DNA of 64,000 bases from an uncultured Candidatus Saccharibacteria bacterium (GCA_964610335.1 CAZSVP010000001.1:351442-415441), one strand, 5' to 3'; counted from the stretch's first letter, positions 37,811 to 45,468 are shown. Numbers and translations: made by a program. Notes: generated by a model from the sequence alone, not told the origin.

Positions 37811-40132
37811 TTGATAAACTTCCAGGATATTGTAACTTCTGTTTCGACCGGCAAACTTTCGCCAGGTAGAATTGGCTACTATGTAAAACGTCTCGCGGCC
37901 GAGACTGCTACCCGCAGGATAGCCAGCATTTTTATTATCGGTCTTCTGGTATTCCAGATTTTTACATTCTTGGCCCCACCAAAGCCAAGCTTTGCGGCTA
38001 GTCCTGGGTTTGACTTAATATCTGGTGCGCCATTTAGTAAAGATTCTCTTATAAGTGCTGTTTGGGATCAGAACCGTGATGGTATTCAACAGGTCTTCAA
38101 CAGGCTAGGTATTTCAAGGCAGAAGATGGAAGCTGCTGGTGTTGGTCCTTGTGCAGCAGAGGGTGACAATTGGATATCGATGGGGCGCAGCCAAGATGGT
38201 GCTGGTAGCTCAGTCCAGTGGCAAGAGGGTATCTGGGTTGGATCATCTATAAACAGATGGGGTAATGCTTATACAAACGATGGTAACTGTATCCAGGCGC
38301 TGCGTGGGCTAGGAGACAAAGTTTATGTATCCGATGGCGGACCTGGTATACCAGCTGGTTGGTATGAATGGGGCGTATTGCTCGATTGCGGTAATATTGT
38401 GCTTAAACCTACTGAGCCACCTCCTAATCCCAAGAGCTTTAGTTGCCAGTCTGTAAACATATCTGCAACAAGTGTAGTAGTAGGACAACCAGTTGTGGTG
38501 GCAGGTTATGCTCATGGTGAGAACGTCTCACAAGGTGAGAGAGTAGACATGGTATACGGATCATATAGTGGAGGTAATCTGCTCGCTACTCAGTCTTCGG
38601 CTGGCGTAGGCCCCCCAGACGGTAACAACAACTTTATAGATGATAGCGGTAAGTCATTTACTTTTAACGATCCAGGAACTTACGAAATAGCGTTAGTGGT
38701 ATTCTACGATGTCGACGGTACAAAATACTTCGCATCAGGTAGTGGAAATGGCGAATGTAAAAGAACTATTACTGTTACACCTCAGCCTAAGCCGCATACA
38801 CTAGTTTGTGGAGGCTTAGATATGGTAAATAGTGGCGGTAACTTCACTTATCAAGCACCGCATACACCGCTCATCAAAGGTACTGCATTGCAAGAAGGTG
38901 ATTCTGGTCCAGAAGTGTATGCCAAACGATTTCTATACCTGTTGCTCAAGGAAGTGCCAAGTGGAGGGTCTGTGCAACATGGTGGGAAGCAGTACATAGA
39001 GATCAATGCCAACAATCGCATACTGCACTCATATCCAACACAGAATACTCGTGTAGATCCGCTTGCTAGTGCACCCAACCCAGCGGCCTTTGCCGCAACC
39101 CAGTTTGCCCAGAATAGCGCTGGAAGTTTCTTGATCCTGCTGCGAGTATCTTCTGAAAACTCTGGCGACAACAACTTCGCTCCAGACACAAACAGTTGTG
39201 CCGTGCCGTTTGTAGTAACCCCTCAACCCAAGGACATCATGTGTGTTGACTTGACTGCTAGCCCACTCACTGGCGACACAGTACCAGTAGAGGTAACATT
39301 CAATGCCAAAGGTGGTGCACAAAACACTACGATCAAGGAATACCAATTTGACTTCGGTGATGGTAACAAACAAACAGTAACAAGTGGCAAGTTTGCTGAA
39401 ACGCTCAAACACACTTATCAAAGTGGTGGCAAATATACTGCTAAGGTTACAGTTGTGGGCACCGACCCGGGTGTGACATCGAGCAAGCCAAGCTGTACTG
39501 TGCAACTTAAGTTTGAACAACACGTGTTCCGCAAGACAGTCAAGAATCTAACAATTCTTACACAAGATGGTAAACCAACCGATGCCAATGGCGCGACTGC
39601 ACGGCCAGGAGATAAGCTAACCTACACTATAGGCATTGCCAACATAGGAAGTGCTCCTATAAAAGACTATGTGTTTAAGGACGACATATCTGATATATCA
39701 CTTTATGCTGATGTAATAGACAAAGGTGGTGCTGAGCTCTCGGTAGAAGCAACTCACGTGTTACTAACCTGGCCAGCGGTGGATATCCCAGTTACGACCG
39801 ATCCGAACAATCCTACTTATGTTACCAAAAGCTTTACTGTACAGGTAAAAGATCCAGTTCCAACCAATGCACAGAAGCCTACTGACAATAAGAACTATGA
39901 TTGTCAGATGGAAGACCAGTTTGAAGGTAATATAGTGATCACACCAATTAGTGTAAACCCAGCTAAGCGGCTAGAGTGTGTTGTGGCTCCTCTGCCACAG
40001 ACTGGTGCTGCCACTAGCCTAATAGTGATGGGATTGCTTGCTGCCCTATCAGTATTCTTACTACTACGCAATCGACTTATGAAACGCGAACTTGATCTAT
40101 TGGAAACACTAAATGAAGGAGCTAAAAGCTAA
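37811..40132 (+). CDS. LPxTG-anchored cell-surface protein with PKD-like and DUF11-like repeat domains
   Basis: N-terminal signal/TM helix. PKD-like motif YQFDFGDGNKQ...HTYQSGGKYTAKVTV. DUF11-like motif GDKLTYTIGIANIGSAPIKDY. C-terminal LPQTG, a hydrophobic helix and an RNRLMKR tail (sortase sorting signal). TTG start inferred. Confidence 0.8.
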   Translation: MINFQDIVTSVSTGKLSPGRIGYYVKRLAAETATRRIASIFIIGLLVFQIFTFLAPPKPSFAASPGFDLISGAPFSKDSLISAVWDQNRDGIQQVFNRLGISRQKMEAAGVGPCAAEGDNWISMGRSQDGAGSSVQWQEGIWVGSSINRWGNAYTNDGNCIQALRGLGDKVYVSDGGPGIPAGWYEWGVLLDCGNIVLKPTEPPPNPKSFSCQSVNISATSVVVGQPVVVAGYAHGENVSQGERVDMVYGSYSGGNLLATQSSAGVGPPDGNNNFIDDSGKSFTFNDPGTYEIALVVFYDVDGTKYFASGSGNGECKRTITVTPQPKPHTLVCGGLDMVNSGGNFTYQAPHTPLIKGTALQEGDSGPEVYAKRFLYLLLKEVPSGGSVQHGGKQYIEINANNRILHSYPTQNTRVDPLASAPNPAAFAATQFAQNSAGSFLILLRVSSENSGDNNFAPDTNSCAVPFVVTPQPKDIMCVDLTASPLTGDTVPVEVTFNAKGGAQNTTIKEYQFDFGDGNKQTVTSGKFAETLKHTYQSGGKYTAKVTVVGTDPGVTSSKPSCTVQLKFEQHVFRKTVKNLTILTQDGKPTDANGATARPGDKLTYTIGIANIGSAPIKDYVFKDDISDISLYADVIDKGGAELSVEATHVLLTWPAVDIPVTTDPNNPTYVTKSFTVQVKDPVPTNAQKPTDNKNYDCQMEDQFEGNIVITPISVNPAKRLECVVAPLPQTGAATSLIVMGLLAALSVFLLLRNRLMKRELDLLETLNEGAKS

Positions 40133-40758
40133 TGGCGGACAACGAAGAAAAACTGATTGATTCAGAGGAATCAGAAGCGAAAGTAGCCAAGCGTAGTTCC
40201 GAATCTCTTGAGCGCAATAAATCTGCCGAGAAGTCAAAGTCAGAGATGAAGCGCGACGAGGCCGACCTAGCTCGTAAAGGTGAGGCTGCTGAGCGTAAGA
40301 TAAAAGCAGAGTTGGAGAAAAAAGAGGCTGACCTAGCTCGCAAACAGGAGAAGTCCAAAGAAGCTGAAGAAAAGAAAGCAGAGAAGGAAAAAGAGCTTTC
40401 TGAGAAGAAGGAACCCAAGGGACCACTAACCAAGACAGAGAAAAAGCGAGTTTACAAGAAGGAATTGAGCAAGATTCAATCTCAACTACCTGCCGGGAGC
40501 CGGGCTTTCTCCAAGGTAGTACACAATCCAGTAGTTGAAACTGTTAGCAACGCTGCTGAGAAAACTGTATTGCGTCCATCCGTGCTAATAGGTGGCGCAG
40601 TAGTAGGTATAGGTCTAGGTATAGTAATCTACGTAGCAGCACGTGTTTATGGCTATATCATCCCCAACTGGATGCTGTTAGCACTACTTGTTATAGGTGG
40701 TGTGCTGGGTGTATTGATTGAAATGGTTCTCAAGCTTGCCGGCCGATCTAAATCGTAG
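40132..40758 (+). CDS. Lys/Glu-rich coiled-coil protein with a C-terminal membrane hairpin
   Basis: About 120 aa of KE-rich predicted coiled coil, then two TM helices (GGAVVGIGLGIVIYVAA ... LLALLVIGGVLGVLIEMVLKLAG). The second helix contains a buried Glu. Confidence 0.6.
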   Translation: MADNEEKLIDSEESEAKVAKRSSESLERNKSAEKSKSEMKRDEADLARKGEAAERKIKAELEKKEADLARKQEKSKEAEEKKAEKEKELSEKKEPKGPLTKTEKKRVYKKELSKIQSQLPAGSRAFSKVVHNPVVETVSNAAEKTVLRPSVLIGGAVVGIGLGIVIYVAARVYGYIIPNWMLLALLVIGGVLGVLIEMVLKLAGRSKS

Positions 40759-40814
40759 TGATTGAGTGCTGACATACCTAGCCAATTGAGCATAAAACGT
40801 GTAGCATAAGTAGT

Positions 40815-43899: not shown

Positions 43900-45215
43900 G
43901 CACAAGCACTAAAGGTAAGATTGTTGGTATTAGCAATATCATGGTGGATGTTATGTGGGATGGTAGCCCTGAACATAGTCAAGAATTCGCTCTGCTTGAA
44001 GTATCCAACGATCTCAAGACTAAGTTACTAGTAATTGAGCAAAATGGTTCGCTTGTACGCTGCTTTAGCTTAGGTAATCAAGAGGATGTTGCTCTTGGTC
44101 AACAGGTAGCTCAGGCTTCTGAGCCGATTGGATTCTATAGTGGTAAGGCAGCCCTGGGTAGGGTCTGGGACACACAACACACTGAGCTTATGAACAAGCC
44201 TGTAGAGAAGGGTGCTAAGCTACTGCCGTTAAAGCCGTACCATCGTAGTGGCAAGAGTGGGTATGCCGCAAGTGCCGATTTACTCGAAACGGGCATCAAG
44301 GTAGTAGATTTCTTTGCCCCATTTGTTAGGGGTCGCAAAGTTGGCATAGTAGGTGGATCGGGTGTTGGCAAGACTGTGCTTACGACTGAGCTCATGCACA
44401 ATGTTTGCAAGCGCAAACTAGGTATATCGATTTTTGCCGGAGTTGGTGAACGTATACGAGAAGCACACGAATTATATGACACACTAAACACCACTGGATT
44501 GTTGGACTCGACTGTTATGTATTTGGGGCAAATGAACCAAACAGCCGTACATAGATGGTTGATAGGCCAGATAGCTGCAGCTTCGGCGCGGCATATTCGT
44601 GATACTGAGAAGACGGACGTGTTATTCTTCGTCGACAATATTTATCGCTATTTGCAGGCTGGCAATGAACTGGCCATGATGCGTGGTGAGCGATTATCCG
44701 AGGGTGGGTATCAGCCTAGCTTGTTTACCGACCTTACGCGCTTCCAAGGTGGACTGGACTCCAACGAAAACGGATCTATCACTTCGGTGCAATCGATTTA
44801 TATCCCTGCCGATGACCTGTCTGACCCGGCTGTAGTGGAGATCTACCAGCAGATTGACAGTGTGATAGTACTGAGCCGGGAGATTATGGAACAAGGGATA
44901 CTACCAGCGGTAGATCTGCTCAACACCAGTAGTTCACTGTTGAGCCCTGAAATCGTGGGCGAGCGCCACTACTACTTGGCCGGTGAAGCCCAAAAGGCAC
45001 TTCAGAAATACCAGGACTTGAAGGGAATTGTTACGATTATAGGTGAGGCTGAGCTATCGATAGAAGATCGTCGCGTTTACAATAAGGCCAAGCAACTGAT
45101 CGAATACTTCCAGCAACCAATGTTTGTTACTGAGCCTTTGACTGGTAAGAAGGGTTTGTATGTGGGGCGTGAGGAAACACTGTCGGCCGTAGAGGAGATC
45201 TTAACGATCCAATAG
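43896..45215 (+). CDS. F1-ATPase beta-subunit-like catalytic protein (divergent)
   Basis: P-loop [25 protein letters not shown], catalytic [13 protein letters not shown], and a DELSEED-like AELSIED. The C-terminal domain aligns with AtpD. Confidence 0.85.
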
Positions 45216-45216
45216 T

Positions 45217-45468
45217 ATGGAAGAAGAACGATTCTTGGTAAAAGTATTCTCGCCTTTTGAAGTGTATTATGAGGGCGAAGCATTTAGCTTGTCGGCCACC
45301 AACTCACAGGGGCCATTTGATGTATTGCCTGAGCATGCCAACTTCATAAGTCTGGTTAGCCGTGGCAATGTTACTATTGATACTCCATTTGGGAAGCGAC
45401 AATTTGCTCTAGAGCGCGGCATACTGCGTATCCGTAGCGGTCAAGCGACACTTTTTGCCAACGTATAA
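45217..45468 (+). CDS. F1-ATPase epsilon-subunit-like protein (N-terminal beta-sandwich only)
   Basis: 83 aa. FLVKVFSPFEVYYEGEAFSLSATNSQGPFDVLPEHANFISLV matches the epsilon N-domain pattern. No C-terminal helical hairpin. Confidence 0.5.
   Translation: MEEERFLVKVFSPFEVYYEGEAFSLSATNSQGPFDVLPEHANFISLVSRGNVTIDTPFGKRQFALERGILRIRSGQATLFANV

Follow-up and report, generated by a model that had tools for sequence, protein, structure and literature searches.

In this study, a gene block in a 64,000-nucleotide stretch of DNA from an uncultured Candidatus Saccharibacteria bacterium (GCA_964610335.1 CAZSVP010000001.1:351442-415441; hereafter the window) was investigated by computational analysis. The block encodes a divergent set of F1-type ATPase subunits preceded by the gene of a membrane-hairpin protein, here called P2. 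With modest confidence, we interpret the locus as a non-bioenergetic motor derived from an F-type ATPase, which would perform ATP-driven mechanical work at the cell surface; any specific surface function is proposed with much lower confidence. Judged from the sequences, the sole conserved membrane partner of the F1 set appears to be a hairpin that resembles subunit c, has no ion site and bears an exported domain. An earlier note, made from the sequence of the window, had suggested a specialised non-bioenergetic F1-like machine. This suggestion is the best-supported reading, given that the F1 set is kept, that no subunit a was found, that the carboxylate of subunit c is missing, and that the context is one of surface genes. 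The six open reading frames (ORFs) that the note had delimited from 40132 to 45468 are all present, intact, co-directional and tightly packed. The first of them encodes a second hairpin protein, P1, and is described below with the neighbouring genes; the other five are as follows, with coordinates counted from the start of the window and all genes of the block on the plus strand.

40815..41669, plus strand: P2, consisting of a signal peptide, an exported beta-domain and a c-subunit-like transmembrane (TM) hairpin (family alignments, AlphaFold2 model)
41666..43057, plus strand: alpha-like (non-catalytic) F1 subunit (PF00006 E=1e-61; P-loop GDAKAGKS)
43060..43899, plus strand: gamma-like central-shaft subunit, full length (PF00231 E=1.2e-24, residues 4-259 of 279; TIGR01146 E=6.8e-15)
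43896..45215, plus strand: beta-like catalytic subunit (PF00006 E=6.6e-56; catalytic motifs intact)
45217..45468, plus strand: epsilon-like subunit of 83 amino acids, beta-sandwich only (PF02823 E=1e-10, residues 8-82)

The reading of the last four genes as AtpA-, AtpG-, AtpD- and AtpC-like in canonical F1 order is supported by a Pfam profile for each, and the alpha P-loop GDAKAGKS and the beta motif AELSIED, both pointed out previously, are found in the sequence. The four proteins are also unusually divergent, as the note had remarked, and all score below the curated equivalog cut-offs for ATP synthase subunits. The best NCBIfam match of alpha was atpA PRK13343 (336 bits against a cut-off of 554), TIGR00962 gave 288 against 484, and beta reached 376.7 bits with TIGR01039 atpD against 462.85. 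Residues 7-418 of alpha align to positions 30-442 of the 507-position atpA model; its N-terminus is short, with most of the delta-binding helix gone, and the C-terminal domain is reduced as well. In the clade of the window the alpha beta-barrel begins after only 9-13 residues (about 9 in the window itself), versus about 20 in most relatives, and ATG 41669 is more likely the start than 41666. In beta the DELSEED motif is degenerate (EAELSIEDR) and the C-terminal tail is about 25 amino acids shorter than in E. coli. Epsilon has no C-terminal regulatory helices, and its homologues in clusters of the same type (type B, below) measure 83-87 amino acids. The catalytic machinery is complete in the window: the catalytic P-loop, catalytic Glu, Walker B and the alpha arginine finger (SVSRVGG) are all present. 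The P-loop, GER-x-RE, DNIYR and adenine-binding motifs are kept in 55 of 55 beta homologues and SVSR[VI]G in 63 of 63 alpha homologues, so ATP hydrolysis would be expected.

The earlier note had considered that the alpha- and beta-like proteins might belong with FliI of type III secretion systems (T3SS). FliI/SctN models gave only 134-167 bits on them versus 336-377 bits for F1 models, which places the proteins in the F1 clade rather than the T3SS clade; these scores, together with separate alpha and beta genes and an epsilon, rule out a FliI/T3SS assignment. N-ATPase and V/A-type membership were likewise ruled out by scores (N-ATPase model, 352 against a cut-off of 752). In a comparison with solved structures, beta scored about 320 bits to ordinary F1 beta versus 263 to the beta of the Mycoplasma mobile G1-ATPase, and alpha about 246 bits to ordinary F1 versus 223.

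P2 begins with a Sec-type, cleavable-looking signal peptide (ending ...PALA/AYVSQ), which is followed by a beta-rich exported domain of about 160 residues and two long helices. The signal peptide places the N-terminus outside, giving an N-out/C-out hairpin with a cytoplasmic R-N-P loop, and in the AlphaFold2 model (predicted local distance difference test, pLDDT, 88.5) the hairpin breaks exactly at R248-N249-P250. The P2 stop overlaps the alpha ATG as TGATG, a configuration of translational coupling. In fold searches the exported domain showed the fold of phage fibre appendage/chaperone and decoration modules, and sporadic matches on this domain in the family were to PF23982 (XM1 gp53 minor capsid) and phage cement families. 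A database search yielded 97 homologous clusters of uniform length (about 255-349 amino acids), none of them annotated, and an exhaustive profile search at the 50% identity level returned 17,795 representatives at E<=1e-3, 5,613 at <=1e-10 and 902 at <=1e-30; the family is essentially without Pfam or NCBIfam assignment. In family alignments IGRNP between the helices and residues of the exported domain are invariant, and the xGRNP loop is found in 322 of 323 unique sequences. Position +20 from the Arg, which corresponds to the carboxylate site of subunit c, is hydrophobic or small in 323/323, and the core of the second TM helix (TM2) is free of Asp and Glu in 322/323. Position +14 is Q in the window and most members and E in 52 of the 323. 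The model and this survey bear out the previous description of P2 as an exported domain fused to a c-like hairpin with an R-N-P loop and no TM2 carboxylate.

To place the cluster among its relatives, one genome per species was scanned, which gave 79 loci, almost all from Ca. Saccharibacteria/Saccharimonadia; 73 P2 homologues with enough flanking DNA were classified. Sixty of the 73 lie directly 5' of F1 genes. Type A, with 49 members, has the order P2, b-like, delta-like, alpha, gamma, beta, epsilon; type AB (3/73) has the same order with P1 in front; type B (8/73), to which the window belongs, has P2, alpha, gamma, beta, epsilon, without b or delta; and the remaining 13 P2 genes are orphans not beside F1 genes. 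Further beta homologues sampled from long contigs were all within P2-type clusters. The b-like proteins of type A are built like b, with a TM segment at the N-terminus and a coiled coil after it, and the delta-like proteins give weak OSCP matches (E=0.0036-0.028). The gene order of type A thus reads as a canonical a-c-b-delta-alpha-gamma-beta-epsilon operon with P2 in place of c and a removed. In rough neighbour-joining trees against typed E. coli AtpD, all P2-linked beta proteins fell in one clade, within which the type B members form a monophyletic group whose sisters are the type A clusters from genomes that also hold type B. Four metagenome-assembled genomes (MAGs) carry both types (L009 and L051 on JAXLZU010000001.1, L010 and L075, L011 and L065, L012 and L053), and in STL-PAT10 a distance of about 22 kb separates them. 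In these MAGs, the type A clusters have a short b (185 amino acids), a delta of 147 amino acids and the P2 loop GRNPTAKNAIF. Given the tree placement and the MAGs carrying both types, type B looks like a lineage-specific duplicate that lost b and delta, and the short alpha N-terminus, the 83-residue epsilon and the short beta tail are consistent with the loss of b and delta. Near-identical and 50-76% identical copies with the same synteny were found in many samples.

The best PDB match of the P2 family profile was a c subunit (E=0.049), in register, with IGRNP opposite IGRNP and hydrophobic P2 residues opposite the c Glu. The sole recurring NCBIfam match among P2 members was to subunit C models (nine member-hits, best 0.0042), and fold searches matched the hairpin to c subunits. 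In most relatives (52 loci) P2 occupies the operon slot of c, before b. On the basis of its c operon position, c topology, c fold and R-N-P loop, P2 is most likely a c derivative, and we regard a c ancestry of the hairpin as fairly probable. The earlier note had recognised none of a, c, b and delta; this stands for a, b and delta, none of which was found in the window, but not for c, in view of the probable origin of P2.

Profile searches detected neither b nor delta/OSCP in the window cluster, and no further atp genes were found within the 64-kb window. Subunit a was found neither in the window nor in about 1.3 Mb of flanks of related clusters, where 51 multi-TM ORFs were inspected and 15 scanned; none of these 15 matched ATP-synt_A, and a hidden a subunit in the flanks was rejected as a candidate. 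No free c subunit was found by profile search among 6,231 ORFs from the window and 86 loci. With no subunit a and no carboxylate, the complex is predicted to be incapable of coupling to H+ or Na+, and with no peripheral stalk ATP synthesis is not expected.

Whether the lineage also has a housekeeping synthase was addressed using published genome tables. None of 15 genomes of the Saccharimonadia order CAILAD01 has atpB (K02108), atpE, atpF or atpH by BlastKOALA/KEGG, including a bin that is 99% complete (0.91 Mb, 46% GC); five of the 15 have one alpha/beta/gamma set, three of these with epsilon (PMC12592800 Table S5). Five complete Saccharimonadales genomes in the same table have a, b and c once each, and three of the five have two alpha/beta/gamma sets. 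The locus from the MAG that names order CAILAD01 (L008) has a beta inside the type B clade with the window beta, so the window organism probably belongs to this order. A second, canonical operon, whose presence the note had named as support for a specialised machine, is therefore probably absent in the lineage of the window, where the P2-type cluster may be the only F-type set. In some Saccharimonadales, the second F1 set is most likely a P2-type cluster, an extra system beside a canonical F1Fo. Southlakia, a cultivated Saccharibacterium, requires none of its F-type ATP synthase components for growth on the host (PMC10633639).

The genes around the core of the cluster were annotated as follows.

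34801..35238, plus strand: small PQ-rich ORF of 145 amino acids, its stop overlapping the start of the next gene by 4 nucleotides
35235..37739, plus strand: P-loop ATPase of the type IV secretion system (T4SS) coupling-protein/HerA type, membrane-anchored via an N-terminal TM segment, DUF8128 family (weak profile matches)
37811..40132, plus strand: PKD/DUF11-repeat exported surface protein (PKD_4 E=3.9e-11; DUF11 repeat)
40132..40758, plus strand: P1, a long KE-rich helix with a C-terminal two-helix TM hairpin (alignment of homologues, AlphaFold2 model)
45543..57036, plus strand: four tandem membrane-anchored surface-fibre genes (Pfam matches and N-termini)

According to profile searches, the F1 set thus lies amid surface genes, between a T4SS-type ATPase with an LPQTG adhesin and four fibre genes, in agreement with the earlier note. 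Type B clusters are always found within the same block: the small ORF, the DUF8128/T4SS-coupling-type ATPase, the PKD-LPxTG protein, P1, P2, alpha, gamma, beta, epsilon and one or more fibre genes with a Peptidase_S74 (S74) domain, the PKD gene and P1 being missing from L008 and L086. A check of synteny, which the note had recommended, showed the block to be conserved in type B relatives (L002, L086 and others). In L002 and L086 it is flanked by a YkuD transpeptidase gene and gyrB-gyrA, as in the window, which indicates a stable chromosomal block; a mobile island is ruled out by this synteny and by the lack of a composition break. The small ORF has syntenic counterparts in L001, L002 and L086, and both it and the coupling-type ATPase are conserved 5' of type B and type AB clusters. 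The small ORF, for which family searches gave no match, probably heads the transcription unit. Immediately 5' of it is the best promoter-like site (34753-34780), although the promoter and terminator scan as a whole did not exceed chance. The weak matches of the ATPase were to T4SS-DNA_transf, TraG-D_C and DUF87 in Pfam and to TraD and VirD4-like families in NCBIfam, and the DUF8128 annotation is carried by its homologues. An anti-phage defence system was considered and rejected, since PADLOC returned only weak mad8/HerA matches, to this same ATPase. Each of the four fibre genes encodes a cytoplasmic N-terminal tail, a TM segment and a Peptidase_S74 intramolecular chaperone domain; a collagen-like stretch is present in three of the four proteins and a C-terminal H-type-lectin-like domain in two. 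The genes at 47937 and 51321 encode proteins with the same first 95 residues, which suggests recent duplication or gene conversion. The S74 fibres follow epsilon in all type B loci and are likely surface partners or the context of the motor. Most P2-linked clusters, those of type A, adjoin neither a coupling ATPase nor S74 fibres.

P1 and the PKD protein appear to form a separate module. The PKD protein ends in LPQTG, a TM segment and a conserved cytoplasmic tail (RNRLMKRELDLLETL...); all 13 homologues (L001-L015, L054, L085; window 39980-40132) end in LP[QRK]TG, a TM segment and the tail RNRL[LM]KRE[LI]xLxxTL. This tail is longer and more conserved than an ordinary sortase sorting signal, and the protein may stay membrane-anchored and touch P1 in the cytoplasm. 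The PKD stop overlaps the P1 start as TAATG, again translational coupling. P1 consists of a predicted, cytoplasmic KE-rich helix of about 78 residues, a conserved juxtamembrane motif (QLPxxSRxFSKVxHN) and a hairpin whose TM2 carries an acidic residue near the cytoplasmic end, kept in 18 of 18 homologues, and its AlphaFold2 model has a pLDDT of 70.5 overall and above 90 in the hairpin. The description of P1 in the earlier note as a KE-rich coiled coil plus a hairpin with a membrane acidic residue is accordingly sound. The family is small (18 homologous clusters found) and P1 has no Pfam or NCBIfam family. P1 always occurs together with the PKD gene, is missing from type A clusters, and stands alongside b and delta in the hybrid clusters L015, L054 and L085 and likewise in L007. 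Since it is coupled to the PKD gene, always accompanies it and coexists with b and delta, P1 is better viewed as an accessory of the adhesin module than as a core stator. It could link that module to the motor, possibly as an anchor or stalk. The idea that P1 replaces b and delta is weakened by the same coexistence, by its coupling to the PKD gene and by its absence in the minimal clusters L008 and L086, and the suggestion of the note that P1 is a membrane part of the ATPase was abandoned in view of that coupling and of the dispensability of P1 in these two clusters.

The mechanism that we propose for the non-bioenergetic motor is as follows. P2 would oligomerise into a c-ring-like body, whose GRNP loops would receive gamma and epsilon. 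The R-N/Q-P loop of real c rings is the F1-binding surface and contacts gamma and epsilon. Coupling to H+ or Na+ would be missing from such a complex; ATP hydrolysis would turn or twist the P2 assembly with its extracellular crown without ion flux, and the output would be mechanical work on the outer face of the membrane. Plausible recipients in the window are the four co-transcribed, membrane-anchored fibres and the PKD adhesin, and a likely purpose would be the attachment of an epibiotic Saccharibacterium to its host cell or movement on it. Torque might be resisted in type A by a candidate b/delta stalk without a; in type B this part may fall to P1 or the cell wall. Accessory parts of the conserved block would be P1 and the T4SS-coupling-type ATPase. 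The full version of this proposal, in which P2 is a non-ion-carrying rotor derived from a c ring, with a crown of phage-appendage-like domains that transmits torque through the membrane to the surface of a candidate phyla radiation (CPR) cell, is put forward tentatively and is less probable than the general reading of the locus as a surface motor.

Several points weigh against the proposed motor. No subunit a that would hold the stator was found, and in the window neither b nor delta. The relationship of P2 to subunit c received little support in direct comparisons: hhalign gave 7% probability (P=0.005, 28 columns), Pfam ATP-synt_C (PF00137) matched 2 of 31 P2 members only, at E>=0.052, and a hidden Markov model built from seven typed canonical c subunits failed to detect P2 (E>=1.4). 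The first TM helix (TM1) of P2 is without the GxGxGxG packing motif, and matches to a fold as simple as a helical hairpin carry limited weight as proof. The 13 orphan P2 genes keep the GRNP loop, so the family may have a role without adjacent F1 genes. The absence of a canonical operon was read from a KEGG table for the presumed order and not from this genome, and the surface function is suggested by the gene neighbourhood and the mycoplasma analogy only.

The alternative that survives best accepts the F1-like hexamer but takes P2 as a membrane anchor or surface adaptor instead of a rotor ring, the hexamer and the T4SS-coupling-type ATPase together driving the assembly, export or remodelling of the fibres and the adhesin, with no ring rotating. 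We consider it unlikely, although of appreciable weight. It would fit the missing Gly-zipper in TM1 and the conservation of the coupling-type ATPase in the block. P2 also shares its architecture and position with MMCAP2_0577 and MMOB1650 of mycoplasmas, which have no established ring role; its exported domain has a phage fibre appendage/chaperone and decoration fold next to fibres that carry S74 chaperone domains; and orphan P2 genes stand beside giant ORFs without F1 genes. However, the complete and conserved gamma and epsilon, which form the shaft and foot of the rotor, would be difficult to account for if they had no rotor partner; the conserved cytoplasmic motif of P2 is the very loop by which c rings contact these two subunits; and most P2-linked clusters, being of type A, have no coupling ATPase or S74 fibres next to them.

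A genuine, divergent ion-translocating F1Fo is improbable. Here P2 would be an odd c subunit with a non-canonical site (for example Q/E at +14), and an unrecognised a, or P1, would give the half-channels. The canonical gene order with P2 at the c position, the acidic membrane residue of P1, the E at +14 in 52 P2 sequences, and the KEGG result that leaves the presumed order without other F-type genes, so that this may be its sole such ATPase, are all in keeping with it. Nevertheless, the TM2 core lacks an acid in all but one of the 323 sequences, and +14 is Q in the window and most members; no a-like protein was found in the 1.3 Mb of flanks; type A and the minimal type B loci have no P1; both epsilon and the N-terminus of alpha are shortened, with no b or delta in the window; and the second alpha/beta/gamma set beside the canonical operon in three of five complete Saccharimonadales, where P2 is presumed to be present, suggests an extra system. 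The narrower version offered by the earlier note, a complete ion-driven F-ATPase whose membrane parts are the two hairpin proteins, is not supported, in view of the lack of a rotor carboxylate in the P2 sequences, the failure to find an a subunit and the dispensability of P1, which is missing in many relatives. The loss of a, b and delta, the truncated epsilon and the scores under all curated cut-offs would also be accounted for by an ATP synthase operon that is decaying in a reduced genome and has no current function, but this is very improbable given intact, translationally coupled ORFs, catalytic residues kept in every homologue, syntenic copies in many samples and 5,613 P2 representatives at the stricter threshold.

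The closest known systems to the proposed motor are the Type 3 F1-like X0 ATPase of mycoplasmas (MSC_0618-0624 / MMCAP2_0575-0581) and the Type 2 G1-ATPase of Mycoplasma mobile (MMOB1610-1670), and the nearest analogues had been identified correctly by the note. The Type 2/3 clusters have alpha-, beta-, gamma- and epsilon-like subunits and no a, b, c or delta, and the surface MIB-MIP system for antibody cleavage depends on Type 3 (PMC3369863; PMC12994834). Like them, the window has no a, b or delta, its alpha is without the N-terminal delta-binding helix, surface-protein genes adjoin, and the cluster occurs in a host-dependent bacterium with a small genome (PMC3369863; PMC12994834). A peripheral stalk is missing from the mycoplasma F1-like X0 ATPases, as it is from type B. 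Compared by description, P2 matches mycoplasma Protein 5 in architecture and position (signal peptide, exposed region and two C-terminal TM helices, 5' of the alpha-like gene). However, P2 is about 30 kDa, versus 87-127 kDa for Protein 5, and showed no similarity to the NCBIfam MSC_06xx family models even at E<=10, so that homology to MSC_0620 was not detected with these models. The gene order also differs (P2-alpha-gamma-beta-epsilon in the window, 1-2-gamma-epsilon-5-alpha-beta in mycoplasmas), and the block is without the 12-TM Protein 1 and the small cytoplasmic Protein 2. Its gamma and epsilon match canonical F1 models and not the mycoplasma ones, and most relatives of the window cluster, unlike the mycoplasma clusters, keep b-like and delta-like genes. 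The mycoplasma family models stayed under their cut-offs (MSC_0618_beta, 372 versus 570 bits; MSC_0619_alpha, 218 versus 520), as did the gliding family models (glide_MMOB1660, 302 versus 600; glide_MMOB1670, 324 versus 850). The locus would work like the mycoplasma Type 2/3 systems but is not a member of those families.

Compared with the canonical atpBEFHAGDC operon, the locus keeps the F1 gene order, the catalytic motifs, the gamma shaft and the epsilon beta-sandwich, related clusters have b-like and delta-like genes in the usual places, and the two-helix hairpin at the c position has the R-N-P loop of mitochondrial and many bacterial c subunits. It differs from canonical F1Fo in having no recognised subunit a and in a hairpin without carboxylate or GxGxGxG, fused to the exported domain behind a signal peptide; in the window, the missing b and delta, the epsilon without C-terminal helices, the shortened C-terminal domains of beta and alpha, and the sub-cut-off scores are further differences. 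A non-respiratory ('symbiotic') F-type ATPase whose beta groups with Ca. Saccharimonadia sequences is described for Omnitrophota by Seymour et al. 2023 (PMC10066038). The Omnitrophota system resembles the present one as an extra non-respiratory F-type set in ultra-small, probably host-dependent bacteria with adjoining surface or attachment genes, and differs in adjoining type IVa pilus genes (PMC10066038). FliI/FliJ and N-ATPase belong to the same rotary-ATPase superfamily and were recruited or diverged; unlike FliI, the window has a heteromeric alpha/beta pair and an epsilon. N-ATPases keep a and an ion-binding c.

To our knowledge, experimental cases of F1-like ATPases freed from ion translocation come only from mycoplasmas, where they serve gliding and antibody evasion. 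The present locus and its P2 family (17,795 representatives at E<=1e-3) provide a simpler and more readable version of such a detached F1 machine, in which the canonical order is kept, b and delta persist in most relatives and the probable rotor subunit is visibly turned into the carrier of an exported domain. Literature searches returned no description of P2, of an operon without a or of the type A/B architectures in Saccharibacteria/CPR, only passing remarks. F-type ATPases of a non-respiratory kind in Saccharimonadia have been glimpsed before, in the Omnitrophota work (PMC10066038). The proposed rotor-to-surface adaptor P2 is unreported in the literature searched and has a very large unannotated family behind it. 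If the proposed reading is true, it would offer a concrete hypothesis for the transmission of torque or force to the cell surface and a stepwise evolutionary path from ATP synthase to surface motor. Under the rotor reading, the F-type rotor would serve a third purpose in addition to ATP synthesis and ion pumping, and the complex may be the intermediate in evolution from which the X0 part (Protein 5) of the mycoplasma ATPases for gliding and antibody evasion can be understood. An entry of 'F-type ATPase present' in metabolic reconstructions of Saccharibacteria/CPR would then often be no sign of a proton-coupled ATP synthase.

Some further observations were made on the orphan P2 genes and elsewhere in the window. 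Orphan P2 loci (L016, L020, L021, L026, L041, L042, L045, L056, L061, L078, L079, L081; P2 at about 10000 in most) keep the GRNP loop and typically have P2 3' of parA-parB and a minus-strand gene of about 220 amino acids. P2 is then followed by a large ORF of 369-3285 amino acids (seven of at least 1400) beginning MENKDQN...; no Pfam domain was found in the one such ORF scanned (L056, 2440 amino acids). Two orphan P2 genes are present in the complete genome CP025011. A tmRNA gene was found in the window at 14086-14477 on the plus strand (Rfam, 114 bits); its predicted tag peptide, AKSLMRDLVNAVKVNELAPAYA, is rather long. No RNA family besides tmRNA was found in 14000-18000, where the G+C content is 0.49-0.52 versus about 0.44 elsewhere in the window. 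Two overlapping pairs of opposite-strand ORFs occur in this region, 15529-16437 (minus) with 15550-16110 (plus) and 16460-17056 (plus) with 16466-16969 (minus). The phenylalanyl-tRNA synthetase beta gene (30489-33224, plus strand) has an NlpC/P60 domain inserted at residues 447-564 (E=2e-17), between B3_4 and B5, and such an insertion of a peptidoglycan-hydrolase domain is unusual for a housekeeping synthetase.

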